64,000 nt of DNA from Minisyncoccota bacterium (GCA_041664925.1 JBAYJV010000002.1:8302-72301), one strand, 5' to 3'. Positions 1,536-44,249 are shown, counted from the first letter of the stretch. The notes: generated from the sequence alone by a model not told the origin. Program-made: numbers and translations.

Positions 1536-1581
1536 ATTGATATATTTACGGAAGTCGGACTTCCGTTACATTAAGAAAAAT

Positions 1582-2418
1582 ATGGCAAAAAATAATAAAA
1601 AACAAATAGCGATTTTTGAAGGCAAGAAAATTAGGCGAATTTGGGATGAAAAAAAAGAACTTTGGTATTTTTCGGTAGTGGATATTGTTGATGCGTTAAA
1701 CGCGAGCAAAAACCCAAGAAATTATTGGAAAGTACTCAAAAACCGCTTAAAACATGAAGGAAGTGAGGTGGTTACAAAATGTAACCAACTGAAAATGCAA
1801 GCCGTTGATGGTAAGTTTTATCTGACCGACTCTGCTGATACAGAAACAATGTTTAGAATTATTCAGTCAATTCCATCACCCAAAGCCGAACCATTTAAGC
1901 TTTGGTTAGCACGAGTTGGTTATGAAAGAATCGAAGAAATAAACGATCCGGAAAGGGCGCTTAATCGCAGTCGAAATTATTGGCAAAGAATGGGACGAAG
2001 TCAAAAATGGATTCAGCAAAGAATGATGGGACAAGAAATCAGAAATAAGCTGACGGATTATTGGAAAGACAACGAAGTTAAGAAACAGGACGAATATGCG
2101 ATTTTAACCAATATTATTCACGAGGAATGGAGTGATTTGTCGGTAAAAGAACATAAAAATTTAAAAAGATTAAAGACAGAAAATTTGCGCGATCATATGA
2201 CAGATGCGGAATTGGTATTTACGGCATTGGCGGAACTTTCTACTCGTCAGATTGCGGAAACCATGGAAACTAGGGGACTGGAAGAGAATAAAATACCAGC
2301 TAAGAAGGGTGGTCGCGTTGCCAAAAATGCGCGCTTGGAATTGGAGCAAAAAACTGGCAAAAAAATAGTTTCAGGAGAAAATTTTAAATTTCCAATTTCA
2401 AGAAAGCGATTACGATAA
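1582..2418 (+). CDS. DinD-like DNA-damage-inducible protein (Bro-N domain family)
   Basis: From [14 protein letters not shown]... The protein resembles E. coli DinD: N-terminal Bro-N-like segment ([37 protein letters not shown]) and C-terminal region (...NIIHEEWS...[20 protein letters not shown]...). The ORF-track start at 1537 overlaps a hairpin, so the internal ATG at 1582 is preferred. Confidence 0.55.
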
Positions 2419-2489
2419 TAAAGAAATCGGAGGCTAAGCCTCAGATTTTACATAACTGGCGTGAAGATTTTAAGGAAAATAAAAGAATT

Positions 2490-2921
2490 ATGAAAATATT
2501 ATTTGTTTGTAGAGGAAATGTTGGAAGAAGCCAAATAGCGGAAGCGCTTTTTAATAAAGAAACTAATGGCGAAATTGAAGCTATTTCTGCGGGAACAAAA
2601 CTTAGCGGACCAGAACAGCCAATCGGAAAAATTACAGCAGATGTTAAAAATGTGTTTGAGGTAATGAAAGAAGATGGTTTGGATATTTCAAAGAATATTC
2701 GCAAACAACTGACAAAAGAAATGGCCGATAGCGCAGATAAAATAATTTTTACTGTGGACGAAAGAGATCCGATTCCTGATTATTTAATTGGAAATCCGAA
2801 AGTTATAAAATGGCATGTTATAGATCCAAAGGGCCAATCTCTTGAATTCACCCGAAAATCAAGAGATCAAATAAAAGAACTTATTAAAGATTTGATTAAG
2901 GATATAAATAGAAATTTATAA
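2490..2921 (+). CDS. Low-molecular-weight protein-tyrosine phosphatase / ArsC-family arsenate reductase
   Basis: N-terminal P-loop MKILFVCRGNVGRSQIAEALF (C-X5-R-S signature). Size is 143 aa. Confidence 0.75.
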   Translation: MKILFVCRGNVGRSQIAEALFNKETNGEIEAISAGTKLSGPEQPIGKITADVKNVFEVMKEDGLDISKNIRKQLTKEMADSADKIIFTVDERDPIPDYLIGNPKVIKWHVIDPKGQSLEFTRKSRDQIKELIKDLIKDINRNL

Positions 2922-2944
2922 TAGAATCTTAGAAAAGGAAAAAA

Positions 2945-4234
2945 ATGTCATCTAACTACAATGCAAAATTAATAGCTGATCTTTATGCAACTAGCGATTG
3001 GAAAAGGGCAATCCGTCTTTCTGATGAAATGGTTGAGATTGGCGATAATATATTCCCAAGACAGATATACGAAGCCTACAAAAAATTCCAGAATACTACG
3101 ATTTCTCATTATTTCGTGTCTGACCTTACAAGCTTTAAAACTAGCGATGCTATCGAAATATTGAAAGAAATAGCGCATAAAACCAGCAGATCAGCCGATA
3201 TTTCTATGATGGTGGACTATTTTATTGATATCGGATATTTTGAGTCAGAGATTGTCGTCAAGGTAAAAAACTTATTTCGTGCAGACATGAACTCAAAAGA
3301 TATTCGAGGATATGACATAGAAACATATTCTGCTTATCTCAAAAAAGCAGACAAAGAGACGAGTAATCTGGAATTATTTTTACGGGAATGTTTTGAGGAT
3401 GAAGAACAAGAAATTGATGCAAGGAAAACAGCGCTCGAAGAACTTTTAAAGTTAAAACCAAAAGAATATATTAATTTTTATTACGATAAATACGATTCTA
3501 TTAAGGGAAAGAAAACGGAAAATATTTTTGTAGAACAAATTTCTACCTGGCACGGAGGAATTGTACCCAAACTTCATCAGAAAATACTCGAAATCGGATC
3601 TGAAAGAGCTAAAGAAATATTACAGAATGAACAATCTAGAATAAAAAAAGAAAAACAATCTGAAGAGATGAAAGAACAAGAGGAAATAAAGAGGCAGTAC
3701 GAAACCGCAGACGTGCTTCACGATATAGGAAAATTAAGATTAAACATAAATAAAACTAGTATTGCTGACGAGAGATTTGGGTTCTCTTTTTTCTCACAAT
3801 CAGAAGAAATTTATCAACAAGTGAAACCGGCAAAGACCAAAAATGAATTCGTTGGTTGTTGTATTGTATTACGATCTTTTCTTAATGATTTTGATAAGCA
3901 AATTACAGAATTAAAAATTTCTGAAGAAAGGGGCAAAGAAATATTGCCCAACATAGAGAAATTTAGTGGAAACATAAACAAATTTCATTTTATGCTTAAA
4001 GAAAAAGGCTTAAATATTGACCAAGATATTTTTGGTCTCAGAAACATAAATTGCATTGTTTCAAAATTCGCTCATCCTGGTAAAAAAACTAATCTTGAAA
4101 TTAATAAGATTCTTAAAAAAGAAGTCTTATTGTTTAAGTATTATAAAGAAAATAACTGGTCAGCGCTGCACAGGGAGGTTTTGTTAAAATACAAAAAAGT
4201 ATTAGAGGAATTAATGAAGGTCATGGCAATGTAA
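2945..4234 (+). CDS. Hypothetical protein (429 aa, Lys/Glu-rich, predicted soluble)
   Basis: Long uninterrupted ORF in the local coding frame. No recognisable motif. Confidence 0.55.
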   Translation: MSSNYNAKLIADLYATSDWKRAIRLSDEMVEIGDNIFPRQIYEAYKKFQNTTISHYFVSDLTSFKTSDAIEILKEIAHKTSRSADISMMVDYFIDIGYFESEIVVKVKNLFRADMNSKDIRGYDIETYSAYLKKADKETSNLELFLRECFEDEEQEIDARKTALEELLKLKPKEYINFYYDKYDSIKGKKTENIFVEQISTWHGGIVPKLHQKILEIGSERAKEILQNEQSRIKKEKQSEEMKEQEEIKRQYETADVLHDIGKLRLNINKTSIADERFGFSFFSQSEEIYQQVKPAKTKNEFVGCCIVLRSFLNDFDKQITELKISEERGKEILPNIEKFSGNINKFHFMLKEKGLNIDQDIFGLRNINCIVSKFAHPGKKTNLEINKILKKEVLLFKYYKENNWSALHREVLLKYKKVLEELMKVMAM

Positions 4235-4271
4235 CTAATAATTTTATGCCATTGTTTTAGGATTCAAGTTT

Positions 4272-4823
4272 ATGACTCTAAAAAACATTATTGAAAAGAG
4301 GAGGAGTGTTAGGAAATTTAAAGCGGATGAGAAAGTTCCGAAAGATTTGATTAATGAATTGATTGATGCTGCTCGGTTGGCACCGTCAGCTTGCAATGCC
4401 CAACCTTCCAGATTTATTTTAATCGAAGACGACAAAACAAAAGAATTACTCAAGGAAAATAACATTTTCAGGCAAGCGTTTGTTTATGAAGCACCGTTAA
4501 TTATTGTTTGTCTTGGCGATGCGAGCGTGTTTCCCAAAGAAAGATTAGAGAAAAATTATGGCAGTTTTGATGAAGAAGTTTTGGGAGATGTGGGGGCAAT
4601 CAGAGATGTGGCTATCGCCACGCAAAATTTGGTTTTAATGGCGACAGAATTGGGATTGGGAACTTGTTATATTGGACTCGTAGATCGAAAGAAAATAAAA
4701 GAAATCTTGGAAATTCCTCAAAACTATGTTTTGCCATTTGTGATTATCACGGGCTATCCGGCCGAAGAACCTAAATCCTCGCCAAGAAAAAGCGTAAAAG
4801 AAGTTATTATTAAAAATTTATGA
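4272..4823 (+). CDS. Nitroreductase-family protein
   Basis: EKRRSVRKF...LIDAARLAPSACNAQP signature of the NADH/flavin nitroreductase fold. Size is 183 aa. Confidence 0.8.
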   Translation: MTLKNIIEKRRSVRKFKADEKVPKDLINELIDAARLAPSACNAQPSRFILIEDDKTKELLKENNIFRQAFVYEAPLIIVCLGDASVFPKERLEKNYGSFDEEVLGDVGAIRDVAIATQNLVLMATELGLGTCYIGLVDRKKIKEILEIPQNYVLPFVIITGYPAEEPKSSPRKSVKEVIIKNL

Positions 4824-5518
4824 AAATATTTATTACCGGCAGTTCCGGTTATATCGGAAGCGAATTAATTAATTATTTAGGCGAGAAGCACGAAATCATT
4901 GAATATGACTTGGCTTTGAGACAAGACATTTTGGATTATGAAAAATTAAAAGAAGCGATGAAAGGTTGCGATATTGTAGTTCATTTGGCTGCTATTCGCG
5001 GACCTGACGAAACCAAAACATTTTCCGATTATTTTAAAGTTAATTGCCAAGGCACTTTTAATGTTGTAAACGCTGCGATTGAAAATAATATAAGAAGAAT
5101 GGTTTATGCCAGCTCAACCGGTTATTATGGACTAGAAAGAGGCGTGCCTTATATAAAGCCGATTAAAGAATCAAATTCTATCATCACTCAACATCTTAAA
5201 GCTGAGGATTTAAATTGCCGAGATTGCGATGTTGCCTATTCAACGAGCAAAGTTATTGCCGAACAAATTCTTGCCAATTATGGGTTAAGAAAGAAAATAG
5301 AAGTGATAATTTTAAGATTAGGTCCGATTGGAGGGAAAAAGGGCGAAAGTTGGGGAATTGATGGAATTAAATTAAAAATGGGGAATGCTTTGCAGGCTCT
5401 TGAAGAAGCGATTACGACCGATAAAAAATTATGGTACGAGGCGTTTACGATTACCGATGAATCAGAAAATGTTGATCTTACTAAAGCTAAAGATATTTTA
5501 GGATACAAGCCAGTTTAA
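4820..5518 (+). CDS. NAD-dependent epimerase/dehydratase (SDR family)
   Basis: MKIFITGSSGYIGSEL Rossmann GxxGxxG start and YxxxK-like active-site region (YSTSK). The ATG overlaps the upstream TGA (ATGA). Confidence 0.75.
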   Translation: MKIFITGSSGYIGSELINYLGEKHEIIEYDLALRQDILDYEKLKEAMKGCDIVVHLAAIRGPDETKTFSDYFKVNCQGTFNVVNAAIENNIRRMVYASSTGYYGLERGVPYIKPIKESNSIITQHLKAEDLNCRDCDVAYSTSKVIAEQILANYGLRKKIEVIILRLGPIGGKKGESWGIDGIKLKMGNALQALEEAITTDKKLWYEAFTITDESENVDLTKAKDILGYKPV

Positions 5519-5715
5519 AAATTTATCGAAGTAAAAATTTATCGAAGTCGGACTTCGATAAATTTGGCTGTTGAGGTCTGACCTCAACACTATAAGAAAA
5601 AGCGTAAAAGAGATTATTATTAAAAATTAATGTGCGGAGGTTCGTTCTTCGCACTTTTTATTTTTATAATATTTTTTTGTGGTAAAATAGAATATTAACT
5701 TGGTAATTTAAAAAT

Positions 5716-6321
5716 ATGTTTTTAACGAATAATAGTTTTTTCCATTTCCTTTTTTTTCTTATAGTTGCAATAGCAATTCTGATTTTGATAGCGCTGAAAT
5801 TATTGGTATTTTTTAAAATATCGAAACGATTTGACAAAACAATTCTTTTTAAAAAGATAGCAATATTTTTCTTTTTATATGAGGCATTATATTTTCTTTT
5901 CGTTTTAATCTATCCAACAGATATAAATTTTATCTTTAATCATTCTTCCGCCACAGTTCTTCTTTCTTCAATACCACTAATCCTTGTGTCATGCTTATTT
6001 TTCTTTTTAATCAATCGCTTTATGAAATTATTCAATCTCAAAAAAGCAATTGCAGTTTTTCTTTTAATGTTTTTTATCGCTACCCCTATTCTTTCTGTGG
6101 TCATTGGAAAAATTGCTACGACAATAAATTTTAAAATAGCAACAGGACATAATTTATCTTTAAGCGATGGGTCGTCTCTTTTTATTTTAGATCCATTGTT
6201 ATACCCTCCTTTCGGATCCTATCAAACTACTGCTCTTATAATTAGAAAAATTGGAGATAGCTTGGGAGAAGGCGCTGTAATTAAGGACATACTAATGGGT
6301 ATTTTTGCTAGTACGGAGTGA
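5716..6321 (+). CDS. Hypothetical integral membrane protein
   Basis: 201 aa, Phe/Leu/Ile-rich with several TM segments. A TTG..TAAAAT-like promoter lies upstream (5672-5700). Confidence 0.45.
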   Translation: MFLTNNSFFHFLFFLIVAIAILILIALKLLVFFKISKRFDKTILFKKIAIFFFLYEALYFLFVLIYPTDINFIFNHSSATVLLSSIPLILVSCLFFFLINRFMKLFNLKKAIAVFLLMFFIATPILSVVIGKIATTINFKIATGHNLSLSDGSSLFILDPLLYPPFGSYQTTALIIRKIGDSLGEGAVIKDILMGIFASTE

Positions 6322-6445
6322 TATCTGAAACAATAGAGGCAGACTTGGGACTTTTTTGTATATTTATACAAAATTTACGGAGGACGGACCTCCGTAAATT
6401 AAAAAAATCTCCCGCAACTTTATGCGGGAGTGATTTTCTATATTT

Positions 6446-7228
6446 CTAAGTACTAGTAAGAGCTTGAGAGAACATTTGAGAAGCTCTAATAACGTAGGTT
6501 TTCGTTGCTTCTATGTCGAGATCATATTCGGCATTGCGAAGGCGTCCCTGAGCATCAATGCTCAACTCAGGGAATTCTTCGACAAGTGGTTGGACAAGAC
6601 CAAGGGAATCAGGTCCTAGTCCGCCAGCGACGCCAAGACCAATATGCCAGTTTTGCCTTTTGATCTCACGAAGGATTTCACGCGCTCGTTCAGTGTCAAA
6701 GGGCTTACCGAGACCGCCACTTGGATCGAGCAAAATATCATTAATGAGATTAGCGTCAATGTAAGGACTAAGCCTTTCTACGATGCCCTGTGGCCCGCCA
6801 GCGGTTTCAATAGCTTTTTGTCCAATCTGCAACACAATTCGTGGAACAAATCCAACGTATTCTCGATACTGTTTCATCATTCGAATATCTGGCCATGCAA
6901 GATTGAGCTGGAAACCACCAAAATTTGATCCGGCAAGTCCTCCAATACCAAGTAAATCAGCGAGAACTGAATCTTCTCGACCTTCTTCGGTGCTGAAATG
7001 AACAAGATTTACTACTCGTTTGTCGGCTAGAAAAATAGGATTCATTACTGGCGGATCTGGCATTTGCTTTGCCCATTGGGGTTTTGTATTAATGCCACGG
7101 ATTGATTTCCATGTAACAAGCACGCCGACCATCAATTTGCGATTACCGTTTTCTGGCAATACGCTCAGCGCAGCCCTCACTTCGCTTGGTTTTGTGATGC
7201 CCGTGATCCCAATGTACGGTTTTCTCAT
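6446..7228 (-). CDS. TIM-barrel-like protein, possibly phosphoribosylanthranilate-isomerase-like; higher-GC cassette gene
   Basis: 260 aa with IGITGI.., LMVGVLV and DPSGGLGKPFD motifs reminiscent of PRAI/TrpF (GGTGxxFDW). Preceded by the conserved leader and SD (7229-7290). Followed by hairpin + T-run terminator (6399-6440). Confidence 0.45.
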   Translation of the reverse strand: MRKPYIGITGITKPSEVRAALSVLPENGNRKLMVGVLVTWKSIRGINTKPQWAKQMPDPPVMNPIFLADKRVVNLVHFSTEEGREDSVLADLLGIGGLAGSNFGGFQLNLAWPDIRMMKQYREYVGFVPRIVLQIGQKAIETAGGPQGIVERLSPYIDANLINDILLDPSGGLGKPFDTERAREILREIKRQNWHIGLGVAGGLGPDSLGLVQPLVEEFPELSIDAQGRLRNAEYDLDIEATKTYVIRASQMFSQALTST

Positions 7229-7290
7229 TTATCCTCCCTTAGAGATTTTTAACGAACTTTAGTGAGTTTAAAAGCTCTTAGGTCCCGGTT
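7229..7290 (-). promoter_or_regulatory. Conserved ~55-nt 5' leader, instance a (serves 6446-7228)
   Basis: mRNA sense: CCTAAGAGCTTTTAAACTCACTAAAGTTCGTTAAAAATCTCTAAGGGAGGATAA-ATG. Confidence 0.5.
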
Positions 7291-7364
7291 TGCCGGGACT
7301 GTATTTTTATTTATTTTTTAAGAACTGTTTTTATCCTAACAAATTATTGCAAAAAGTCAAGGAC

Positions 7365-7393
7365 ATATGTGGGAGGCTCAGCCTCCCACATAT
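7365..7393. repeat. Extended GGAGG-loop-CCTCC palindrome (ATATGTGGGAGGCTCAGCCTCCCACATAT), left flank of small-membrane-gene cassette
   Basis: Counterpart ATATGTTGGAGGTGAGACCTCCAACATAT at 7871-7899 on the right flank. Same family at 20978-21005, 21049-21079, 21130-21158, 6366-6386, 44221-44245 and elsewhere. Confidence 0.5.
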
Positions 7394-7550
7394 TTTTGTT
7401 GACATTTATGATATTGGATGGTAGGATTTAGAAAGGAAGAAGTCCCGATAGGCCCTGCCTACCGGCAGGCAGGCGGGAGAAGATTGGGCTTTGGGGGGAG
7501 CAGGGTCCGCCTTCGCAATGCCTGCCTATCGGCAGACAGGGCTTCGGCGG

Positions 7551-7859: not shown

Positions 7860-7974
7860 GCCTAGTCAATATATGTTGGAGGTGAGACCTCCAACATATT
7901 TTATTCTATTCTTGACTTTTTTTGGAAAAATAGTAGGATAAGGGAAGGAGGAAGTCCTTCGACTTTGCTCAGGA

Positions 7975-8029
7975 CCTAAGAGCTTTTAAGCTCACAAAAG
8001 TTCGCTAAAAATCTCTAAGGGAGGGCTGT
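7975..8029 (+). promoter_or_regulatory. Conserved leader instance b (serves 8030-8449); near-identical to instance a
   Basis: CCTAAGAGCTTTTAAGCTCACAAAAGTTCGCTAAAAATCTCTAAGGGAGGGCTGT-ATG. Confidence 0.5.
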
Positions 8030-8449
8030 ATGGCGCGAGGAGTGAAGTGGTTCGGATTGACTCAGTTCGACGAAGTCATTGAGAAAAAAGATTTGGGAAA
8101 ACTTAGCATTGTTGCTTTAGCTGAAGGAAGAAAGATATTAGGAAGAAGCATACAAGGTTCTAATGTGTTTGGTATCCCAGTTGATAAGGATAACGTCATA
8201 TTTAGGTACATGAAGGGTGAAAAATTCGATGTTGTTATTCGGTACAGACGAGTTATTCGACAAGTTAGGTTAGTGGCACATGATCGTCTTAGTCTCTTTA
8301 GCGTTAGAAGCATGGCTCTAAAAGCACTTGGCAAGTCTTCTGAAATACTGGTTTTAGTCTTAGAAGATGATCAAGGAAGACGCATTTACATCAATTCTAA
8401 GTTTGCTATGTTATTTAGGCCATTACCTTCCGAAAAGAAAGCGAAATAG
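8030..8449 (+). CDS. Hypothetical protein (139 aa)
   Basis: ORF with the conserved leader CCTAAGAGCTTTTAAGCTCAC...TCTCTAAGGGAGG 6 nt upstream. A stem-loop + T-run terminator follows at 8466-8498. Confidence 0.5.
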   Translation: MARGVKWFGLTQFDEVIEKKDLGKLSIVALAEGRKILGRSIQGSNVFGIPVDKDNVIFRYMKGEKFDVVIRYRRVIRQVRLVAHDRLSLFSVRSMALKALGKSSEILVLVLEDDQGRRIYINSKFAMLFRPLPSEKKAK

Positions 8450-8597
8450 TTTTCAAGCAAATCAAGACTCGGCACAGACGCCGGGTCTTTTTTTTTATTG
8501 TTAATGTAATCCTCCTACGCTCCAACTAGCCGGAGCTTCGGAAGGATGTAAAACTTTCTAAAACTCAATCAATTCGTTAAGAAAGTTTAACAAACAC

Positions 8598-13285: not shown

Positions 13286-13334
13286 ATTTATTACATAAAA
13301 AAATCCACGCACTTTCTTATGCGTGGGTTTTGTT

Positions 13335-13655
13335 TTATTTTCTTTTAGGAGTTATCACGAGAATGATAAATTTCATAAGGGAAAGGAAAGCAAATCCTCC
13401 TTGGACGATAATCTCTCCTAACAGACTTAATGTCCTGTCAGGATATGGGAACCAGATAGAGACAGCGGGAGATTTATACTGAGTCCACAAGGTAATCGTA
13501 TTGAATCCCAATAGCAGAGTTACGATAATCCAAAAGATTCGTGATTTTTCTAATGGTCTGATGAAAAAAAACACCAAACCAATTCCCAAAAGACCGATTA
13601 TTCCAGCAATAGTGCTCCACATTACAAGAGTATCCCAAGCAACTTGGCTTTCCAT
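13335..13655 (-). CDS. Small integral membrane protein (106 aa, ~4 TM)
   Basis: Hydrophobic ORF downstream (minus sense) of the 75-bp repeat that carries TTGACA-N17-TAGACT. Confidence 0.45.
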   Translation of the reverse strand: MESQVAWDTLVMWSTIAGIIGLLGIGLVFFFIRPLEKSRIFWIIVTLLLGFNTITLWTQYKSPAVSIWFPYPDRTLSLLGEIIVQGGFAFLSLMKFIILVITPKRK

Positions 13656-13671
13656 ATTTTTCTCCTTTATT

Positions 13672-13751
13672 TTGTTTTAAGAACTGATATGAGTCTATCA
13701 TATACACATAATTTGTCAAGAAAATCTTACGAAGTCGGACTTCGTAAGATT
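13672..13751. repeat. 75-80-bp direct repeat copy 1 (promoter module TTGACA-N17-TAGACT on minus strand + CGAAGTCGGACTTCG hairpin)
   Basis: Near-identical to 14193-14272. Each copy precedes a minus-strand gene. Each is also paired with a copy of terminator AAAAAAATCCACGCACTTTCTTATGCGTGGGTTTT (13286-13325 and 13763-13800). Confidence 0.6.
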
Positions 13752-13849
13752 GTTTGTAAGATAAAAAAATCCACGCACTTTCTTATGCGTGGGTTTTTGA
13801 TTTCTTTTATTTCTCTTATTTCTCTTTAGAGGATTGATTCATGTTTCGA

Positions 13850-14179: not shown

Positions 14180-14192
14180 CCCTTCCTCCTTA

Positions 14193-14272
14193 TATTTTAA
14201 GAACTGATATGAGTCTATCATATACACATAATTTGTCAAGAAAATCTTACGAAGTCCGACTTCGTAAGATTT
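14193..14272. repeat. 75-80-bp direct repeat copy 2
   Basis: TTAAGAACTGATATGAGTCTATCATATACACATAATTTGTCAAGAAAATCTTACGAAGTCCGACTTCGTAAGATT. One substitution relative to copy 1. Confidence 0.6.
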
Positions 14273-14338
14273 TTTAAATAAACAATTGACATTAAAATTA
14301 AGTTTTGTTAGAATATTGTCAGTACCAAAGGAGGCGTT

Positions 14339-15665: not shown

Positions 15666-15746
15666 GTCTTCAAAATGTTAGACACCGAGTGTCTAACATT
15701 TTGAATTATAAGCATTGCTAAGTTACGGACTTTCCAGTAAAATGTA

Positions 15747-18559: not shown

Positions 18560-18706
18560 GACATTTTCTGTCAACTTTTTTCACAAAATCATGAAAACAG
18601 TTGATTTTTTATGTTAAATATGCTATAATAGATAGTAGAGAGAGGTTGGGATTTAAATAAAGAAAACTAAATGAAGCCCCGCACCAGAGCATAGCACGGT
18701 GCGGGG

Positions 18707-18757
18707 TGTAAGAGCTTCTAGTCTTACTACGTTCGACAAGAATCTCTAACAGGGGGT
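18707..18757 (+). promoter_or_regulatory. Conserved leader instance d (serves 18758-19102)
   Basis: GTAAGAGCTTCTAGTCTTACTACGTTCGACAAGAATCTCTAACAGGGGGTATG-ATG. Confidence 0.45.
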
Positions 18758-19102
18758 ATGATGAGAAAGAGAGCTTTGTTTAAGCCACGCAATCCGAATC
18801 TCACAGAACGAGAATTCGTTCAGGAGTGGAATGATGTTCTGAGAGAGCGACATTCCAGTTTCCATCTTCAGTACGGTGGGTGGAATCCCAGACAGGGAAA
18901 GGAAATGCGCTGGTGCGATATTTGGAACTTCCCAAACGGGTGGTTCATCGGCTCAAGACTCAGAGGCGATCTTCTGTTGGTGATTGACGAGGATTACACA
19001 CAGGATGTCATCGATGCTCTCGTTGAGGGCAATCTGGCGGAGCGGCTCGATCCAGTCACCGGCGAACCCTTGGTTGAAAAAGTTCGAGAGGCGGCGAAGT
19101 AG
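18758..19102 (+). CDS. Hypothetical protein (114 aa), GC-elevated cassette gene
   Basis: Conserved leader GTAAGAGCTTCTAG...GTTCGACAAGAATCTCTAACAGGGGG upstream, preceded by the CCCCGCACC...GGTGCGGGG hairpin. Terminator GAGGCGGCGAAGTAGCGCGCCTC + T9 at 19083-19124. Confidence 0.5.
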   Translation: MMRKRALFKPRNPNLTEREFVQEWNDVLRERHSSFHLQYGGWNPRQGKEMRWCDIWNFPNGWFIGSRLRGDLLLVIDEDYTQDVIDALVEGNLAERLDPVTGEPLVEKVREAAK

Positions 19103-20977: not shown

Positions 20978-21158
20978 AAAAATCGGAGGCTCAGCCTCCG
21001 ATTTTCTACAACTGGCAATGGTTTAAACAATTCAATAAAAAAAACGAGATATGTGGGAGGCTCAGCCTCCCACACATATGTTAGTTTTCTGCGAAGTATT
21101 CAATAATCAAGTCGAAAGATTGAATAGATAAATATTTGGAAGTCTCACTTCCAAATAT
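20978..21158. repeat. Three consecutive GGAGG/GGAAG-loop-CCTCC/CTTCC palindromes in one intergenic region
   Basis: AAAATCGGAGGCTCAGCCTCCGATTTT; ATATGTGGGAGGCTCAGCCTCCCACACATAT; AATATTTGGAAGTCTCACTTCCAAATATT. Confidence 0.5.
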
Positions 21159-21286
21159 TTTCAATTACCTTAATTTATTGACATTGGTGTTTTAATGTGA
21201 TAGATATAGACATAGTACCGTAAAAACAAAAATTTGTCTTTTGGCGGCTTGTTGCCAAAGTTCATAAGAAATCCAAAGGAGGAAGA

Positions 21287-23992: not shown

Positions 23993-24154
23993 GTCATTCT
24001 GAGTGGTTGGTTCTATTTTTTCGGAGTAAACTTATAACAAGAGTCATTCTGAGTGGTTCGACGAGCTCACCATAAATTCCACGAAGAATCTCGTGTTTAA
24101 GAGCGATAATTCGGGATCCTTCCCCTATGCCTTACGGTACGGGGTCAGGATGAC
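23993..24154. mobile_element. MITE-like element(s) with GTCATTCTGAGTGG ... TCAGGATGAC terminal inverted repeats (two nested left ends)
   Basis: Left TIRs at 23993 and 24044; right TIR 24145-24154. The interior carries the family words (AAGAATCTCG..GGGATCCTTC). Confidence 0.4.
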
Positions 24155-25236: not shown

Positions 25237-25386
25237 AAATTGTAAATTAGTCATGATAACTCAAAGCTCAAATCTTAAAACTCAAAACAAAAACTTAAAA
25301 CCATTAAACTATTTAGCTTTGAATTTTGAGCTTTGAACTCTAAGCTATGGCTTTGACCTTTAACATTTAAGCTTTAAGTTATTTTC
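25237..25386. repeat. Low-complexity AAAACTCAAAGC-word tract; inverted partner at 26990-27120 flanking pduL-ackA
   Basis: AACCATTAAACTATTTAGCTTTGAATTTTGAG (25290-25325) versus CTCAAAATTCAAAGCTAAATAGTTTAATAGTTTTAAG (27041-27078). Similar tracts at 38500-38660, 49440-49530 and 57780-58010. Confidence 0.45.
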
Positions 25387-26984: not shown

Positions 26985-27111
26985 TAATTCTTTATAAACT
27001 CAAAGCGCAAAGTTCAAAACTCAAAACTACAACTCAAAATTCAAAGCTAAATAGTTTAATAGTTTTAAGTTTTCCTGCCTGTCGGCAGACAGGTGTTTTG
27101 AGTTCTAAGAT

Positions 27112-29738: not shown

Positions 29739-29796
29739 AATCTTGCTTGCCCGTCCGGAGTCTTGACTGTCGTCAGGCAGGCTTGGCGTAGGAGGG

Positions 29797-29850
29797 TCAT
29801 TCTGAGTATTAGCGAAGAATCTCGGGATCCTTCATTTCATTCAGGATGAC
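29797..29850. mobile_element. 54-bp MITE-like element (TIR GTCATTCTGAG / TTCAGGATGAC)
   Basis: GTCATTCTGAGTATTAGCGAAGAATCTCGGGATCCTTCATTTCATTCAGGATGAC. Confidence 0.4.
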
Positions 29851-29903
29851 TCATTTTTTTATCGCGATTAAAAAAGCGGAGACCTTGTCTCCGCTAGTAT
29901 TTT

Positions 29904-30128: not shown

Positions 30129-31028
30129 TCAGGAGCATGTTGCTGCTTCCAGCTGTCCCAGTAAACGGCTGTACTTTGGATGAGCTTCAAGCCACATTCT
30201 AATCTTTTCAAGCGATTCTTTTTCAATCTGACGAGCTCTTTCGCCAGAAATCCCATGCTGTCTGCCTATTTCCTCGAATCCTTGTTCTTCTCTTGAAGGA
30301 TTCATTCCGTAACGCGCCCTTAGGACGGCTGCTTCCCTTTGAGAAAGACCCAAGACCATCGCTTCAGAAATAAGCCTTCTTATAGAACTGTTTCTGATCT
30401 CTTCTCCGACAACTTTTTCTGGAGAAAAAGTTTCATCAATAATACCATTAACTTCAGCGGTCTCATCAGGGTCACTTTTAATGGGCGTGTCTAAAGACAG
30501 CACATCAAAAACTCCAAGAGCGGCGATTAAAGTTTTGGGATTAATCTTATTCTTTCTAGCAAAATCTACTATCGCTATTTCGGTATTACTATTGAGTCTT
30601 GCGTCGGGATGTTCTCTTGCGAATTTGACGATTGACCACTTAATATTTTGAGGCAATCTAATAGGAGAGGATATATCGTGAAGTTTTCTCCCAATCGTAT
30701 CGTCAATCCACCAAACTGCGTAAGTTGATGGTTTGCTGCCTTTTGTTGAGTCGAATTTTGCCGATGAATCGTAAAAAACACGAAGCAAAACTAAATAACA
30801 GTCATGAAGTAAATCAGCAATAGTTTCTTCGTCATTAAAGGTTTGGATCTTTACGAAAATTCTCTTAAGGATTAGCTTGGTCATGCTTAAAACTAAGCGT
30901 GCACAAGCTTCTTTATCGCCATTTCTGGCCTTTTTGGCTAGTTCTAATTGTTCTTCTTTTCTTTGAATTTCTGTGAACAAGCTTTTTTCTGGCATCTGGA
31001 CATGACTCTCAATCGTCGCTAGTGGCAT
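30129..31028 (-). CDS. Sigma-70 family RNA polymerase sigma factor (divergent paralog 1)
   Basis: Region 2 (STYAVWWIDDTIGR) and region 4 HTH (LSQREAAVLRARYGM...EEIGRQHGISGERARQIEKESLEKIR). Confidence 0.75.
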   Translation of the reverse strand: MPLATIESHVQMPEKSLFTEIQRKEEQLELAKKARNGDKEACARLVLSMTKLILKRIFVKIQTFNDEETIADLLHDCYLVLLRVFYDSSAKFDSTKGSKPSTYAVWWIDDTIGRKLHDISSPIRLPQNIKWSIVKFAREHPDARLNSNTEIAIVDFARKNKINPKTLIAALGVFDVLSLDTPIKSDPDETAEVNGIIDETFSPEKVVGEEIRNSSIRRLISEAMVLGLSQREAAVLRARYGMNPSREEQGFEEIGRQHGISGERARQIEKESLEKIRMWLEAHPKYSRLLGQLEAATCS

Positions 31029-31267
31029 TGAACATCCTCCTTTAGAATTTCCTTCTGAATGTAATGAAGAGTAGAAATTCTTAAGCCCTTCCGTAGCTTC
31101 GGCTTGCCCTGCCTACCCTGCCTACCGGCAGGCAGGCGGAGCGTAGAAGGGTAATAATTTTTTAACACTAGACTGTATTTTCATTATTAAAGAACAATAC
31201 TTGCCAACAATACTAACATATTTTTATAAAAAAGCAACCCTCCTACGCACCAGTATAAAAACAATTA

Positions 31268-31896: not shown

Positions 31897-31960
31897 GTTT
31901 TCACCTCTCTTAGAGATTCTTGCTGAATGACAGTGAAATTAGAAGCTCTTTACCCTGAGC
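31897..31960 (-). promoter_or_regulatory. Conserved leader instance e (serves 31534-31896)
   Basis: TAAAGAGCTTCTAATTTCACTGTCATTCAGCAAGAATCTCTAAGAGAGGTGAAAAC-ATG. Confidence 0.45.
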
Positions 31961-32266
31961 TTGTCGAAGGGTTAGACCCCGGCTTGCCCTGCCTACCGGC
32001 AGGCAGGCGGGACTACACTTGCAACTCTTTCATTATAAAACAAAAAGAAGGAAAGTCAAATGTAAACCTGTTAACCGTTAAGCGTAAACCGTGAACCGCA
32101 AACCTCGCATTTCGCGATTAACGAATAACGACTAATTTTCTTGCCCTTCCGAAGCCCTGCCTACCGGCAGGCAGGCTTGTGCGTAGGAGGGTTGCATTTT
32201 AATCAAAATGTGCTAGTATCGTTGGCAGTTATCATGGTTCTTTAATATTAACAAAGGAGGGGGGGG

Positions 32267-33256
32267 ATGATTGGACAACTAGAAGTTCTCTATGCTTATT
32301 TCAGAGAAATTAGCAGAACTCCTCTTTTAACCAAAGAAGAAGAAATTGAATTGGCTAAAAAAATTGCTCAAGGAGACAAAGAGGCAAAAGAAAAATTTAT
32401 TAGAGCTAATCTGGGATTAGTTGCTTCAATTGTACAAAGATATAGAGTAAGAGATTCTCATTTAAGTTATTTTGACTTGATCCAAGAAGGAACATTGGGC
32501 TTAATTAGGGCGGTTGAAAAATTTAATCCTTGTAAAGAATGTAGATTTGCTAATTATGCCGCTTGGTGGATTAGACAATCGGTCTTGGTGGCAGTAGCAA
32601 AACATAGTAACAATATTAGATTGCCATGGGATGCAAGACGGTTGGTTTCCAAATTTACAAGAGAGAGTTCTGACGTAGGACTTAGTATGACTAACGGCGC
32701 GATGGCAGATTTTTGCAGAAAACACGCTGGAACCAATCGTAAGATACTAATCGCTGCTCTCGGGGCTTATAATAATATTGTGTGCTTGAATTTATCTATT
32801 GGCTGCGATGACAGTGATGCTATTGAAAGACAAAGCCTAAGAGAGATTCCTATTGAAGAGGATGGATTTGGAGATACCAATACCATAAAAATTGTTCTTG
32901 TTTCTCAAGAAGCAATTTCCTTGATGACCATAATTGGCGATGATGGAGATGCTCCCGAAGAGTATGTTTTAGGCGAGCAAAATCCTCAAGAAGATGAGCT
33001 CAGAAAATTGCGCAAAAAAGAAATCTTAGAAAAGGCGATGAATGCTGTTCTTAATTCTAGAGAAATAGATGTTCTCACCTTGCGATTTGGATTGGGAGAC
33101 ATAAAAGAACTAACTCTTCAAGAAGTAGCAGAGCAATATCATCTTTCTCGAGAAAGAATCAGACAGATTGAAAAAAATGCTCTTGAAAAAATTAAATGTT
33201 ATCTCAGAGCAGAATATGGAGAACGTATTCATGAATTAGCAAGATACCTTGTGTAA
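32267..33256 (+). CDS. Sigma-70 family RNA polymerase sigma factor (divergent paralog 2, with ~100-aa insertion between regions 2/3 and 4)
   Basis: Region 1.2/2 (LTKEEEIELAKKIAQGDKEAKEKFIRANLGLV...IQEGTLGLIRAVEKF...YAAWWIRQ) and region 4 (LTLRFGL...TLQEVAEQYHLSRERIRQIEKNALEKIK). Confidence 0.8.
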   Translation: MIGQLEVLYAYFREISRTPLLTKEEEIELAKKIAQGDKEAKEKFIRANLGLVASIVQRYRVRDSHLSYFDLIQEGTLGLIRAVEKFNPCKECRFANYAAWWIRQSVLVAVAKHSNNIRLPWDARRLVSKFTRESSDVGLSMTNGAMADFCRKHAGTNRKILIAALGAYNNIVCLNLSIGCDDSDAIERQSLREIPIEEDGFGDTNTIKIVLVSQEAISLMTIIGDDGDAPEEYVLGEQNPQEDELRKLRKKEILEKAMNAVLNSREIDVLTLRFGLGDIKELTLQEVAEQYHLSRERIRQIEKNALEKIKCYLRAEYGERIHELARYLV

Positions 33257-33465
33257 AATGGTAAGCGGTCACTAAAGAATAGTGACCGCATTTATAATCC
33301 TTGCTTTTTCTTATAAATGTGTTAATATGGGGACCTAGAATAGTTCTTTAACTTAATGTAGTCCTACGGTCACGAATAAAGTCCTCCTTCACTAAAGTTA
33401 CGGCGGGACGTAAGAATCTTCATTTCTCGTAAACTCGAAAGAATCTTCTAACGGAGGTGGGAAAA

Positions 33466-34320
33466 ATGTTTGAATGGCAAAAAGGAATTAGAAGCTATCT
33501 TAAAGAAATTGGCAAAATTCCTCTTTTAACTAGAGAACAAGAATTTGCTTTAGCTGAAAGAGTTGCCAACGGAGACAAAAAGGCAACAGAAGAATTTGCT
33601 CTAGCGAATTTGCGATTAGTCGTTTCAGTCGCAAGAAACATTCATTATTATTCTCCCACGCTCAGCATGCTCGATCTGATTCAAGAAGGCAATATTGGTT
33701 TAATGAAAGCTATCGAGAAATTCGATCGCCATAAAGGCTATAAATTCTCCACATACGCGAAATGGTGGATTTGGCAAGCGATTTTGAGAGCAATATCGGA
33801 TCATGGTAGAGACATAAGACTACCGTCTCATATACTTGAATCAATTCGCAAGGCTCAAAGGAAAATTTCTCAAGAGAAAGATAGAGAAGAGGATCCAAGA
33901 GATTTAGGAGAAATTCTTGAAGAAGACGGATTGAGCGATGCGAGTATTGTTGGGATTATCTCTGCTACTCGCGGAAGACTTTCTTTGGATGTTGAACTTG
34001 GAGAAGACGGAGAAACTTTTGAAGAATATGCTGATGGCAAGCAACCTTCTCAAGAAGATGAATTTAATGCATTGAGAAAAAGAGAAATCATAAAAGAGGC
34101 GATAAATGAGACTCTTGATGATAGAGAGAAGGATATTATTAACTTGCGATTTGGGATGGATGGGACAAAAGCATTAACTCTTAAAGAAATATCAGCTCTG
34201 CATGATATTAGTCGAGAAAGAATTAGGCAAATTCAAATAAAAGCTCTTAGAAAGATCGGACACTATATTGAAACAAAATATAGGGAGCAAATGACGGACA
34301 TAGAAAAAGCGTTTTTATAG
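33466..34320 (+). CDS. Sigma-70 family RNA polymerase sigma factor (divergent paralog 3)
   Basis: LLTREQEFALAERVANGDKKA...ANLRLVVSVAR...IQEGNIGLMKAIEKFD...YAKWWIWQAI and region 4 (INLRFGM...TLKEISALHDISRERIRQIQIKALRKI). ATG is 5 nt after GGAGGTGG. The ORF track used the GTG at 33457. Confidence 0.8.
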   Translation: MFEWQKGIRSYLKEIGKIPLLTREQEFALAERVANGDKKATEEFALANLRLVVSVARNIHYYSPTLSMLDLIQEGNIGLMKAIEKFDRHKGYKFSTYAKWWIWQAILRAISDHGRDIRLPSHILESIRKAQRKISQEKDREEDPRDLGEILEEDGLSDASIVGIISATRGRLSLDVELGEDGETFEEYADGKQPSQEDEFNALRKREIIKEAINETLDDREKDIINLRFGMDGTKALTLKEISALHDISRERIRQIQIKALRKIGHYIETKYREQMTDIEKAFL

Positions 34321-35435: not shown

Positions 35436-35772
35436 CTTTGACAATGATCTAGTTTTTTTGGTAGGATTGGTTATAAAGAAAGAGGAGAAATATATTTCAT
35501 CGCTAACAAAAATTTGTTAGAAACAACAAAATGCATTGTTTGTCTTTGTTTGTAGGGGGGACAAACGGCTCATTTAAAAACCAACACGAGAGAGGATTGG
35601 TTTTTTTTGTTTAAAATCGTTGTGTAGATGTCCGACATCTACAGCCAAGCGAGAAGGAACAGAACCTTAAAAACGGAAAAATTATTTACACTAGTGTTGA
35701 TAATTGATTATTGAAAGTTGAAAATTAATTCGCAAGCTTAGCTAAAAATGTGTGACAACATTAAAGCTTCGC

Positions 35773-37445: not shown

Positions 37446-37501
37446 AATATTTAGGAAGTGCGGACTTCCAAAGGAAGACCGACTTCCACTTTAATAAAAC
37501 T

Positions 37502-38455
37502 ATGAAAAAGATTTATTTAGCCATTACATTACTATTAGCTTCAATTTTTGTCTTGCCTCAATTTGCCGGTGCAATTGGACAAGTAACTCAACCAATTGTC
37601 TTAAAGGATGTTTTAAGGGGACAGACAGTCCAAGCAGATTTAATATTGCTTAATTCGGACACAAAAGTTATTACCTATGAATTATCAGCCGAAGGAGCAA
37701 TTGCTAAATGGGCGAAGTTTTACAAGAAAGATGACTCAATTAATCCAATTACGACAATTCAAGTTCCAGCTACAAGCACAATAGGTTGTGTTATAAAATT
37801 AACTATTCCTCAAGATACGCCCAACGGTGAATATAAAGGACAAGCAATGATTACAACCATAGAAACAGAAGGCGAAACAGCAGGAGAATCAAACGCCTCT
37901 ATTAGATTGAGGATTGGAAGAGATATTTCCATTACTATTACAGACCAAGAAATTCTTAAATTCACAGCATTAGTAACCCCCATGAAGTATGTAATTGCAA
38001 GCAACGAATTACTAAAAACGAGAATTATTTACAGCAACCAGGGCAATATTTTAATTAAACCAACGGTTGATTTTAAAATTTTGAAAGATAATCAGGTTAT
38101 TTTTAACGCGATTTATCCTTATCCAGAAGGAGATGAAGGAGTTATTCCTTTTACCCAAAAAATCATCCCTCTAATTGAATGGCCTACTAGTGGACACGAA
38201 AATGGTATGTATCAAGCACAGATTAAAACACTATTAAATGGCGTAGTACAAGGTGAGTATAAATTTGCATTTGAAGTTGGTCGTGATCTCTCTTGGTATT
38301 TGGCAGCGCTTGCTTCAATCGGTCCAGGAAAAGTTGGTTTGATTTTGATTGCGATTGGAATTGTGCTGATTGGGATATTTGCGGTAAGGACATTCGTCTT
38401 TAAAAAAAAAGATTGGGAACTAGCCGCAGGGTTTTTTAGAAACCTATTCTCGTAA
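37502..38455 (+). CDS. Secreted protein with C-terminal TM anchor
   Basis: Signal peptide MKKIYLAITLLLASIFVLPQFAGA. C-terminal LILIAIGIVLIGIFAV followed by a basic tail. Confidence 0.55.
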   Translation: MKKIYLAITLLLASIFVLPQFAGAIGQVTQPIVLKDVLRGQTVQADLILLNSDTKVITYELSAEGAIAKWAKFYKKDDSINPITTIQVPATSTIGCVIKLTIPQDTPNGEYKGQAMITTIETEGETAGESNASIRLRIGRDISITITDQEILKFTALVTPMKYVIASNELLKTRIIYSNQGNILIKPTVDFKILKDNQVIFNAIYPYPEGDEGVIPFTQKIIPLIEWPTSGHENGMYQAQIKTLLNGVVQGEYKFAFEVGRDLSWYLAALASIGPGKVGLILIAIGIVLIGIFAVRTFVFKKKDWELAAGFFRNLFS

Positions 38456-38675
38456 GAGTAAGTTTAAAACTCCTGCCTACCGGCAGGCAGGCAAAAGTCA
38501 AAAGTTAAAGCCACAGTTCAAAAATCAAAACTTTAGTAGCTCATAAGTTTTAAGTTATGGTTTTGCACTTTAAGCTTTGCGCTTTGAATTAAATACAATG
38601 AAATTAAGATTTAAACATTGTTTCGAGTTTCGGATTTAGAAATTCGAATTTAAGCAAGAGATTTTTAAAAGTATA

Positions 38676-42881: not shown

Positions 42882-42969
42882 ATTTTTCCCACTTCAATTC
42901 ACTAATGTACGAGATTCGACCTCGTACATTTTATATCTTGACAAAAAGAACGGTTTTGATAATATAGAT

Positions 42970-43072
42970 AGTGGCAATCCTGCAACCCACGGATGCTGGA
43001 TGCCAGGGGTAATTGGTACCCCACCGTACCCTCCCGCGCAGAGAGGGAGGACGAGCCTCCCTCTCCCTTTTC
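42970..43072 (+). ncRNA. Candidate small RNA E (same promoter/terminator architecture; shares TCCTGC(A/C)ACCC(A/G)C..GCTGG motif with sRNA C)
   Basis: TTGACA (42938-42943), 16-nt spacer, TAATAT. Terminator GAGAGGGAGGACGAGCCTCCCTCTCC + T-run (43041-43071). The overlapping 72-aa minus ORF is judged spurious. Confidence 0.3.
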
Positions 43073-43152
43073 TTCGATTCATAGGAATTGAAAAAAACAA
43101 ATCCCGCATCACACGATACGGGGTTTTTTGATTGCGTTTCTGAATTATTATT

Positions 43153-43482
43153 TCAGCTTCCTCTTACTTTCCACAAAAAATAATTAAAATAATTCTGCCA
43201 CTGTTTGTTGTTTGAATGATACTCGTTGTCGTAAATAAAATAATCCACTAATGCTTCGCGTGTTTTTGTAATCTCTCTAAGTCGCGATTGATTTTTTACA
43301 TCGCTAATCGTTAAATCTATAAGTTCAAGTCCTCTGAAAAATGCTTGGCGAGAGTAATCAGGATTATTTTTATTTTTCCATGAAATTGTTCTTTCGATTT
43401 CACTTCCGACATTTGCCATCTGTTCAAAAAAAGAAAGCTTAACCCATCCACCATCCGCCAACTGTTTATGTTGAAAAGCCAT
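43153..43482 (-). CDS. Hypothetical protein (109 aa; helical, possibly HEPN-like)
   Basis: ORF only. Lies next to the TA pair. Confidence 0.4.
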   Translation of the reverse strand: MAFQHKQLADGGWVKLSFFEQMANVGSEIERTISWKNKNNPDYSRQAFFRGLELIDLTISDVKNQSRLREITKTREALVDYFIYDNEYHSNNKQWQNYFNYFLWKVRGS

Positions 43483-43683
43483 AATTTGATTAAATTATTG
43501 ACCGATTTGTGTCTTCCTTCTAATCCTATCAAAAATTCAGTCGATTGACAACTAACAAAACAAAACCCACAACGATACAATTTTACATTAAACAACATTA
43601 AAACACGACAGTTGTGGATAAATAATATTGATTAATTAATACAGTTGTATTACAATAGAATTATATCAACTAACTACAATTAT

Positions 43684-43917
43684 ATGCGCCAAGTAATAAG
43701 TTTATCTTTTGCAGAAAATGTCGCCAAAGAGGTTAAAACCCTTTCTAGAAAAAGAGGATATTTTTCTGTTAGTAAATATATTCAAGGATTAGTAGAGATG
43801 GACAAGGAAATCATTTCTGAACAGGAGTTGTTAAGTTCAATTAAACAGTCAAGACAGGAATACAAAAAGGGCAAAGCGATTACTGCTAAATCAATGGCAG
43901 AACTATATGATAATTAA
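43684..43917 (+). CDS. Putative antitoxin of RelE/ParE-type TA pair
   Basis: Small ORF (MRQVISLSF...) overlapping the toxin gene start by 11 nt. Start chosen at the internal ATG. Confidence 0.45.
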   Translation: MRQVISLSFAENVAKEVKTLSRKRGYFSVSKYIQGLVEMDKEIISEQELLSSIKQSRQEYKKGKAITAKSMAELYDN

Positions 43918-44179
43918 GGCTATTTATTATTCTAAAAAATTTCAGCAAGAATTAAAGAAACTGCCAAAAGAAATTGTTAATTTAGCAATTAAAAAAGAAT
44001 CGTTGTTCAGAAAGAACCCACTACACACTTCTTTGCGCCTTCACGAATTACATGTAAAGTTTCAAGGCATTTGGTCTATATCTATAACGGGAAATTATAG
44101 AATCATCTTTGAGAGGATGACTAATGGCGATATCCTGTTCATCTCTATCGGCAAGCACGATATTTATAGATATTTATAA
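43907..44179 (+). CDS. RelE/ParE-family type II toxin
   Basis: 90 aa with ...LHELHVKFQGIWSISITGNYRIIFERMTNGDILFISIGKHDIY, the characteristic RelE/ParE C-terminal pattern. Confidence 0.7.
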   Translation: MIIKAIYYSKKFQQELKKLPKEIVNLAIKKESLFRKNPLHTSLRLHELHVKFQGIWSISITGNYRIIFERMTNGDILFISIGKHDIYRYL

Positions 44180-44249
44180 AAAAAGTTTACTTGCGCAAAC
44201 TTCTTTTGACGGAAGAATGATTTACGGAGGTCCGTCCTCCGTAAATTTT

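Follow-up and report, generated by a model that had tools for sequence, protein, structure and literature searches.

The hairpin-forming palindromes dispersed along a 64,000-nucleotide stretch of DNA from a Minisyncoccota bacterium (GCA_041664925.1, JBAYJV010000002.1:8302-72301; the whole stretch is referred to below as the window) are interpreted here, with a probability of about 0.8, as the repetitive extragenic palindromes (REPs) of a Patescibacteria genus and as the nucleic-acid partners of Y1 (HUH) tyrosine transposases that resemble the REP-associated tyrosine transposases (RAYTs). The family is lineage-specific and extragenic, is conserved at orthologous sites with compensatory changes, and flanks transposase genes. 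Since the same palindromes both flank and lie inside a RAYT-like gene, they are best read as REP elements and not as ribosome-binding mimics. Most of what is known of REP/RAYT systems comes from Proteobacteria, and debate about their function continues. No paper linking RAYT/REP elements or palindromes with Patescibacteria was found in the literature searched, and the system seems to be a variant of the REP/RAYT type in a phylum where none seems to have been described. The traits that define a RAYT system were taken from a published account (PMC5581495).

The Palindrome Family in the Window

An exhaustive scan of the window revealed about 19 perfect or near-perfect palindromes, all of them intergenic and spanning positions 1548-44246, and no copies between 44.3 and 64 kb. 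A dispersed hairpin family of at least 14 copies had been described in the initial annotation; every copy cited there was recovered at, or a few bases from, its given position, and the copies at 15669 (atypical core) and 29875 (borderline) were absent from its list. The family is real, and its frequency is far above the expectation obtained from 100 dinucleotide-preserving shuffles of the window. Perfect stems of at least 10 bp were observed 19 times against 0.78 in shuffles (maximum 3), and those of at least 12 bp 9 times against 0.04. The pattern GGAGG-N3-7-CCTCC occurs 7 times in the window (0.04 in shuffles), GGAAG..CTTCC 7 times (0.28) and GAAGT-N3-ACTTC 5 times (0.08); the opposite order, CCTCC..GGAGG, does not occur in the window, the purine arm always being 5'. 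The generalised core GANGYNNNRCNTC gave 13 matches where 2.16 were expected, a number reached by none of the 100 shuffles, and 12 of the 13 are intergenic palindromes.

The units share the core 5'-GARGY-NNN-RCYTC-3', flanked by AT-rich, covarying outer arms; their length is 19-37 bp in the window and reaches 43 bp among relatives. Every unit is perfectly palindromic about a single central base, with a minimal loop of 3 nt. Of the GGAGG and GGAAG arms originally proposed, both were recovered as core variants, and the accompanying 5-nt loop is seen only in copies with a mismatched closing pair. Among 71 distinct copies from the window and its relatives, only the G six positions and the A five positions from the centre are invariant, an invariance set by the selection rule. 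G occupies position 3 in 63 of the 71; at position 4, 47 copies have G, 18 have A and 5 have C; and stem positions 7-12 each show 3-4 Watson-Crick pair types with 93-100% pairing, part of which comes from the rule by which the copies were gathered. GGAGG is the commonest core, with CGAAG, GGAAG, TGAGG and AGATG also present. The centre is constrained as well (GGAGGC-type units have TNA and GAAGT-type units CSG), and the centre counts pair by reverse complement (TCA 12/TGA 11, CGG 11/CCG 9, TTA 7/TAA 5), as expected if the unit can sit in either orientation. Mismatches of the G.T kind make up 5 of the 42 stem mismatches in these copies; this lack of excess fits pairing in a DNA hairpin better than in an RNA hairpin. 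Folded as single-stranded DNA, the units gave predicted energies of -7 to -14 kcal/mol, with z-scores of -4.3 to -8.7.

RAYT-Like Genes With Flanking and Internal Palindromes

When JGI metagenome contigs were scanned with ATATGTKGGAGGYNNNRCCTCCMACATAT, 26 contigs were obtained. One of them, L095, carries two open reading frames (ORFs), rayt1 and rayt2, each bracketed by two identical palindromes; L117 and L110 have one ORF each, bracketed in the same manner, and palindromes also flank a RAYT-like gene in L120 and L121. Both L095 ORFs match the Pfam family Y1_Tnp (PF01797) at about 42 bits against a cutoff of 23, and their sole NCBIfam match is NF047646, REP-associated tyrosine transposase, at 40.7-46.4 bits. 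The homologue family has at least about 7,900 members, most of which are unnamed; the named ones come nearly all from metagenome-assembled genomes (MAGs) of Patescibacteria and are called 'transposase'.

A homologue, P0140, was found in the ENA assembly to which the window itself belongs (contig k141_481756, here L123) and in the same Logan run. Its gene is placed between miaA and glyA, with AATTTATCGAAGTccgACTTCGATAAATT on both sides, at -92 and +33 nt (L123:5881-5909 and 6738-6766). The arms of the window copy at 5535-5565 are identical to those of both flanking palindromes, and its centre, cgg, is the reverse complement of their ccg. The orthologue P0177 shows the same miaA-glyA synteny in a sister species (84-90% nucleotide identity), and no tnpB was found at either locus. 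Such a syntenic position is consistent with the pattern of a single-copy, vertically inherited RAYT. These associations support the option of REP-like elements raised in the initial annotation.

The HUH motif and the catalytic tyrosine are invariant in the transposase family. In an AlphaFold model of P0140 (pLDDT 76, pTM 0.78), the best Foldseek match was 4ER8, the Escherichia coli RayT with its REP hairpin (E 1.7e-5, probability 1.0), followed by the TnpA proteins of IS608, ISDra2 and IS200. Alignment by hhalign placed the HUH, QxRF and YIxxNP motifs in line with those of E. coli RayT. Searches of the PDB by sequence, with one protein or a profile, gave marginal Y1 transposase matches only, and the fold search was needed. 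Two clades of the transposase can be distinguished. P0121, a member of the second clade that is 90% identical to an L095 protein, has a half-site ahead of its start codon and a full GGAGGC-type palindrome over the 3' end of its gene. As judged from the palindromes that flank each clade, the two transposase clades pair with two hairpin types: the rayt1/rayt2 clade with the GGAGGC-TNA-GCCTCC type, and the P0140/P0177 clade with the GAAGT-CSG-ACTTC type.

The flanking arrangement is repeated in distant Patescibacteria, namely in L036, L126 (Nealsonbacteria), L127 (Gottesmanbacteria) and L128, where two copies of a genome-specific perfect palindrome bracket the gene; the GARGY core is present in the palindromes of L126, L127 and L128 and not in L036. 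A third copy lies within the transposase ORF, 161-187 nt from its start, in L121 (6174-6194), L123 (6170-6198), L126 (5188-5216), L127 (1704-1726) and L128 (5171-5203), and in each case matches the flanking copies of its own genome. In the P0140 model this internal palindrome falls in a low-confidence, disordered loop (residues 57-66, KSIEVGLQYID). It is read in different frames by lineage (SYEASPRKI vs VRGSTSY), which indicates that the nucleic-acid palindrome is conserved and not the peptide. Tentatively, RAYT-like genes with three hairpins (one on each side and one inside the ORF) might be vertically inherited across the entire phylum Patescibacteria, the three hairpins co-evolving within each genome and the internal one possibly being self-regulatory or self-targeting. 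Some genera may have expanded their hairpins to about one per 3 kb at promoters, gene ends and accessory genes, where they could act as portable boundaries aiding the gain and loss of cassettes.

Lineage Restriction and Conservation in Relatives

Obg and other genes of the window assign it to Patescibacteria/Paceibacteria. The regions around Obg in 80 other Parcubacteria species, 1.17 Mb of sequence in all, contain 3 instances of GGAGG..CCTCC, compared with 7 in the 64 kb here, and 2 of the reverse order; the core pattern is found there at chance density. The palindrome family is restricted to one Paceibacteria genus; the chance level elsewhere makes it a genus-specific feature and rules out a general terminator style of Parcubacteria.

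Contigs with 93-97% identity in Obg (84-90% in DNA) were taken as close relatives. A triple of palindromes at 20979, 21052 and 21130 is kept in them at the matching place after a radical-SAM gene. Orthologues of the first copy in L088, L089 and L091 differ in the centre only (tca, tga, tcg), and those of the third have the centre ggg (ctc vs ggg). The middle copy, starting at 21049, reads TGTGGGAGGC..GCCTCCCACA in the window and TGTTGGAGGT..ACCTCCAACA in its L088 orthologue, corresponding to two compensatory pair changes. The copy at 1548 is likewise kept, its L084 orthologue GCGGAGGTccgGCCTCCGC showing two compensatory pair changes. Other copies are polymorphic in presence, a point that had been proposed for examination among related genomes. 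The copy at 2428 recurs with an identical mismatch in L105 and is missing at that site in L084; those at 13723 and 14241 lie within a three-gene segment absent from L091 and L088; the copy at 15669 is absent from L091 and L084. L088 carries an extra palindrome in the Obg leader. The Logan contigs L002 and L003 end at window position 5563 and L130 starts at 14244, in each case inside a palindrome, as expected of repeats, which fragment short-read assemblies of this organism.

Position Relative to Genes, Promoters and Terminators

The neighbouring genes are in tandem at 13 copies, convergent at 4 and divergent at 2, and 9 of the 19 copies lie 3-50 nt past a stop codon. The copies at 7365 and 14241 are situated between divergent sigma-70-like promoters. 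Three palindrome sites adjoin canonical T-run terminators (5535/5569 with 5632, 6372 with 6409, and 13723 with 13765), and ordinary terminators, in which the loop has 4-8 nt and the T run 6-9 residues, were found at 8464, 9443, 14621, 49538, 53512 and 55728. Because canonical terminators are used elsewhere in the genome, the palindromes constitute a separate class. Most copies have no T run, and several are followed by T-rich sequence. In a terminator scan, 2 of the 10 copies between 1 and 20 kb passed on the plus strand (7365 and 7871), and one extra weak match, the copy at 2428, was obtained on the minus strand. T-less terminators, another suggestion of the initial annotation, are therefore retained as a secondary use at most, given that fewer than half of the copies follow stops, that two lie between divergent promoters and that three sites stand beside T-run terminators. 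Terminator and insulator roles are plausible but secondary.

A -35-like hexamer, TTGACW, occurs within 26 nt of 9 of the 38 palindrome flanks, compared with a background of 3.4%, at a distance that is not fixed (0-21 nt). A fixed cleavage or target motif in the flanks was considered and rejected: TTGAC is about 3.6-fold enriched at scattered distances, and this scatter indicates that the hexamers are probably promoters rather than a target site. An Rfam scan at gathering thresholds and a tRNA scan of the window gave no matches.

Proposed Mechanism and Comparison With Known Systems

Based on the analogy with E. coli RayT and the TnpA proteins of the IS200/IS605 insertion sequences (ISs), the transposase may bind, cut and mobilise the hairpins. 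A unit exposed as single-stranded DNA would fold so that the conserved tip GARGY-N3-RCYTC is displayed on an AT-rich lower stem that is variable yet paired. A transposase dimer could then bind the folded hairpin and would cut and rejoin the DNA beside it, and such cutting and rejoining would spread and homogenise the copies. Many copies may have been put to secondary use by the host as transcript-end hairpins or as insulators beside promoters.

The E. coli REP and bacterial interspersed mosaic element (BIME) system, with its transposase RayT (TnpA_REP, yafM; 4ER8), resembles the present one in its short, multi-copy extragenic palindromes, often just past stops, in its tandem clusters of different subtypes (BIMEs there; here, mixed clusters of the subtypes P1-P2-P3), and in a Y1/HUH transposase gene flanked by repeat copies. 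In E. coli, the REPs lie around rayT (L132:338-835) at L132:159-213, 901-955 and 1002-1056, with none inside the gene, whereas a third palindrome occupies the ORF here. The palindromes described here are also perfect, with one central base and with neither a GTAG head nor bulges; the protein has about 230 aa instead of 165 and an extra conserved C-terminal region (YRWSS..DY); and the host has an ultra-small Patescibacteria genome. The REPIN-RAYT systems of Pseudomonas (Bertels and Rainey 2011, PMC3116915; Bertels et al. 2017, PMC5581495) share with it the presence of several RAYT clades in one genome, every clade having a repeat type of its own, repeats that flank the RAYT gene, and a gene that is syntenic between species. 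The REPINs themselves are inverted REP doublets in hundreds of near-identical copies, whereas single perfect palindromes with diverse outer arms are found here. IS200/IS605 elements (IS608, ISDra2) are similar in the fold of TnpA and in their hairpin-bounded gene, and folded single-stranded hairpins are likely the substrate in both; differences are the lack of tnpB, identical hairpins on both sides, the syntenic position and the solo dispersed hairpins. The terminator-forming pairs of Neisseria DNA uptake sequences (DUS) and Haemophilus uptake signal sequences (USS) are also lineage-specific inverted repeats after genes. In contrast to them, the half-sites here (GGAGGC, GAAGTC and others) show no enrichment away from the palindromes, and the uptake-signal reading was dropped for this reason.

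Several observations weigh against a REP/RAYT identity. The NF047646 scores are below the 80-bit equivalog cutoff, and with 46 as against 80 bits the transposase has to be regarded as a distant relative of the curated RAYTs. No transposase gene was detected inside the window, either by Pfam on 50 ORFs or by tblastn with RAYT-like proteins, and the window's own population yielded no gene of the rayt1 type, though GGAGGC-type copies are common there. The assignment of L123 and the window to the same genome is based on a shared assembly, a shared Logan run and identical REP arms, not on binning. The units have no GTAG head, no REPIN doublet form and no conserved asymmetric head; an exact flanking 16-mer occurs 3 times in 81 kb, and the copies are far more diverse than classical REPIN populations. 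Apart from the three at the transposase gene, the distant genomes sampled showed few copies, and an IS with hairpin ends is equally possible there.

Alternative Explanations

For the genus of the window itself, the idea that the palindromes belong to an active IS200/IS605-type IS, as its hairpin ends and miniature derivatives, and are not partners of a domesticated single-copy RAYT is considered improbable. The gene is hairpin-flanked as in IS200, the homologues are called 'transposase' by their sources, L095 holds two diverged paralogues, and L126, L127 and L128 show no flanking-palindrome copies beyond the three at the gene. Against this, P0140 and P0177 keep the miaA-glyA position in two species (84-90% nucleotide identity), tnpB is lacking, about 0.3 Mb of related contigs contained no identical duplicates of the gene, the fold and family matches are nearest to RayT, and the left and right hairpins are identical instead of forming distinct left and right ends. 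Plain Rho-independent, possibly bidirectional, terminators or 3'-end stabilisers, alike only through the constraint for a strong stem in an AT-rich genome, would account for the 9 of 19 copies shortly past stops, the 4 between convergent genes, the two that pass the terminator scan (7365 and 7871) and the T-rich sequence after several copies. This explanation is unlikely, since ordinary T-run terminators exist and three stand directly beside palindrome sites, the copies at 7365 and 14241 separate divergent promoters, and most copies have no T run. The shared core and fixed centre amount to sequence conservation beyond stability, the family is absent from other Parcubacteria, G.T pairs are not tolerated, and copies flank and occupy a transposase gene. 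The combination typical of intrinsic terminators (a GC-rich stem with a direct T run, found after genes and absent between divergent ones) is not what the palindromes display.

The initial annotation had noted that copies bracket inserted cassettes. As a description this holds for 7365/7871 around a gene and for the RAYT genes of relatives; as a mechanism of the recombinase type it found no counterpart. Crossover sites of site-specific recombination (integron attC-like or dif-module-like) that move single-gene cassettes would be in keeping with the copy pairs around single genes (7365/7871 and 13723/14241), with copies inside segments that are present or absent between relatives, and with a length of 27-35 bp, which fits a tyrosine-recombinase core site. 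Nevertheless, such sites are very unlikely: no integrase or recombinase was found by Pfam in 50 window ORFs or among the genes called at related loci, the boundaries of insertions and deletions do not match palindromes, two insertions are bounded by direct duplications of about 40-55 nt, and the arms are too variable for sequence-specific arm binding. When 13 accessory proteins were compared by tblastn with all related loci examined, no second genomic context indicative of cassette mobility was found. Integron attC sites are imperfect repeats of 57-141 bp with R''/L''-L'/R' cores (GTTRRRY), extrahelical bases and a nearby IntI; the units here are 19-37-bp perfect palindromes without attC architecture and without an integrase (Pfam). 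The proposal that the hairpins act through a Shine-Dalgarno (SD)-like GGAGG and an anti-SD-like CCTCC, in translational control or ribosome sequestration, or that they are operators of a dimeric regulator by promoters, is hardly credible. GGAGG is indeed the commonest core, and TTGACW is enriched near the flanks, but about one-third of the copies have GAAGT, GATGT or GACAC cores without SD similarity, no palindrome GGAGG lies 5-12 nt ahead of a start codon, and the distance to the -35-like hexamer is variable (0-21 nt). Arms that vary but are always paired point to structure rather than to a protein-binding sequence. The SD/anti-SD mimicry suggested initially fails because the SD-like sequence is one core variant, confined to some subfamilies with GA..TC as the conserved positions, and because no copy is placed to act on a start codon.

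Individual Copies and Other Repeats in the Window

The copies, which are listed here as REP-like palindromes, begin with ACGGAAGTcggACTTCCGT (1548-1566), of the GAAGT/CSG type, located 12 nt past the TauE stop and 15 nt ahead of the Bro-N start. It is followed by AATCGGAGGCtaaGCCTCaGATT with the conserved tail TTTACATAACTGGC (2425-2460), of the P1 type. The stretch 5519-5565 consists of a left-arm duplicate, AAATTTATCGAAGT, and the palindrome AAATTTATCGAAGTcggACTTCGATAAATTT, and is followed by TGTTGAGGTctgACCTCAACA (5569-5589), to which a copy at L123:10590 is similar. AATTTACGGAGGacggaCCTCCGTAAATT (6372-6400) adjoins a canonical bidirectional terminator (6409-6430). The palindrome between divergent promoters at 7365-7393, ATATGTGGGAGGCtcaGCCTCCCACATAT, is of the P2 type, which brackets RAYT-like genes in L095, L117 and L120. 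ATATGTTGGAGGTgagACCTCCAACATAT (7871-7899) lies 11 nt past a stop codon and 12 nt ahead of a -35-like TTGACT, and identical copies are present in L098 and L114. AATCTTACGAAGTcggACTTCGTAAGATT (13723-13751) is situated between a canonical terminator (13765-13798) and a minus-strand promoter, and AAAATCTTACGAAGTccgACTTCGTAAGATTTT (14241-14273) between divergent promoters. The 37-nt perfect palindrome TTCAAAATGTTAGACACcgaGTGTCTAACATTTTGAA (15669-15705), 3 nt past the Obg stop, has an atypical core, and its membership is uncertain. The mixed cluster comprises P1, AAAATCGGAGGCtcaGCCTCCGATTTT with the tail CTACAACTGGC (20979-21016), P2, ATATGTGGGAGGCtcaGCCTCCCACAcATAT (21049-21079), and P3, AAATATTTGGAAGTctcACTTCCAAATATTT (21130-21160). 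AGCGGAGACcttGTCTCCGCT (29875-29895), enclosed by A and T runs, is a borderline case and possibly an ordinary bidirectional terminator. The remaining copies are TGTAGATGTccgACATCTACA (35623-35643); two short tandem units, GGAAGTgcgGACTTCC and GGAAGaccgaCTTCC (37454-37487), 14 nt ahead of a start codon; AATGTACGAGatTCGacCTCGTACATT (42904-42930), with the core GAGGT and one A.C mismatch, 22 nt past the stop of a 1401-aa ORF; and ATTTACGGAGGtccgtCCTCCGTAAAT (44220-44246), between convergent genes.

In some copies an arm is tandemly duplicated, as [arm]AA[arm]-centre-[arm'] or as a partial right-arm repeat (window 5519-5565, L084:9950-9987, L088:6430-6465, L091:7979-8020 and L127:2244-2285); this would permit alternative hairpins. 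The left arm of the palindrome at 15669 resembles the ancestral sequence in relatives (L091:3375-3425, L088:3405-3435), and its right arm looks like a newly inverted copy; in L088, a different palindrome occupies this spot, at the junction of a deletion of two ABC-transporter genes. A module of palindrome, promoter and 5' untranslated region is duplicated with 95% identity (13670-13755 vs 14190-14275). A terminator is duplicated as well (13287-13346 vs 13753-13812). These duplicated parts, with which 7311-7344 is also grouped, surround unrelated small genes. The entire segment 13286-14620 is missing in L091 and L088.

Behind each of two inserted genes, about 40-55 nt from the 3' end of the gene upstream recur as a direct duplicate (108-161 vs 740-785, 47/55 identical, and 4786-4824 vs 5593-5631, 36/39 identical). 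L084 lacks window positions 162-1535 and keeps only the remnant of a nitroreductase 3' end. These direct duplications look like cassette insertion by short-homology or site-specific integration.

Further repeat families were noted. A conserved 5' leader of about 60 nt, GGGACYTAAGAGCTTTTA..TTCG..AAGAATCTCTAAGGGAGG, stands immediately ahead of the start codons of at least 8 unrelated genes, on the plus strand at 7950-8032, 18685-18760 and 33385-33459 and on the minus strand at 7229-7305, 31029-31105, 31897-31975, 50489-50565 and 54788-54865; its TAAGAG and CTCTAA can pair just 5' of the SD sequence. The hairpin CCTGCCTACCGGCAGGCAGG represents a second repeat family, mainly in leaders (7454-7473, 7511-7543, 31117-31136, 31988-32007, 32156-32175, 38472-38491 and 50721-50753), and is also present in relatives (L084:19973, L088:8623). 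Another dispersed intergenic family, GTCATYCTGA...GAATCTCGGGATYCTTC, is found at 24040-24154, 29790-29855, 46183-46340 and 47480-47660. A-rich low-complexity repeats (AAAGCTCAAA-like; 25258-25313, 26997-27052, 38480-38600, 49462-49517 and 57802-57857), together with complementary T-rich partners, lie upstream of genes and could form long AT-rich hairpins. Three sigma-70-family paralogues are encoded within 4 kb (30129-31028 on the minus strand, 32267-33256 and 33457-34320).

Significance

In practical terms, the repeats break short-read assemblies of these MAGs, and the palindromes could be mis-scored as terminators or ribosome-binding sites. Perfect palindromes, a tip conserved across most sampled lineages (L036 being the exception) and a copy inside the ORF together make a simple, testable system, which opens the questions of how a Y1 transposase recognises its hairpin and how expression of the transposase is controlled. 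Such a density of palindromes in a genome that is both ultra-small and streamlined speaks for their being tolerated, or useful, even under strong genome reduction.

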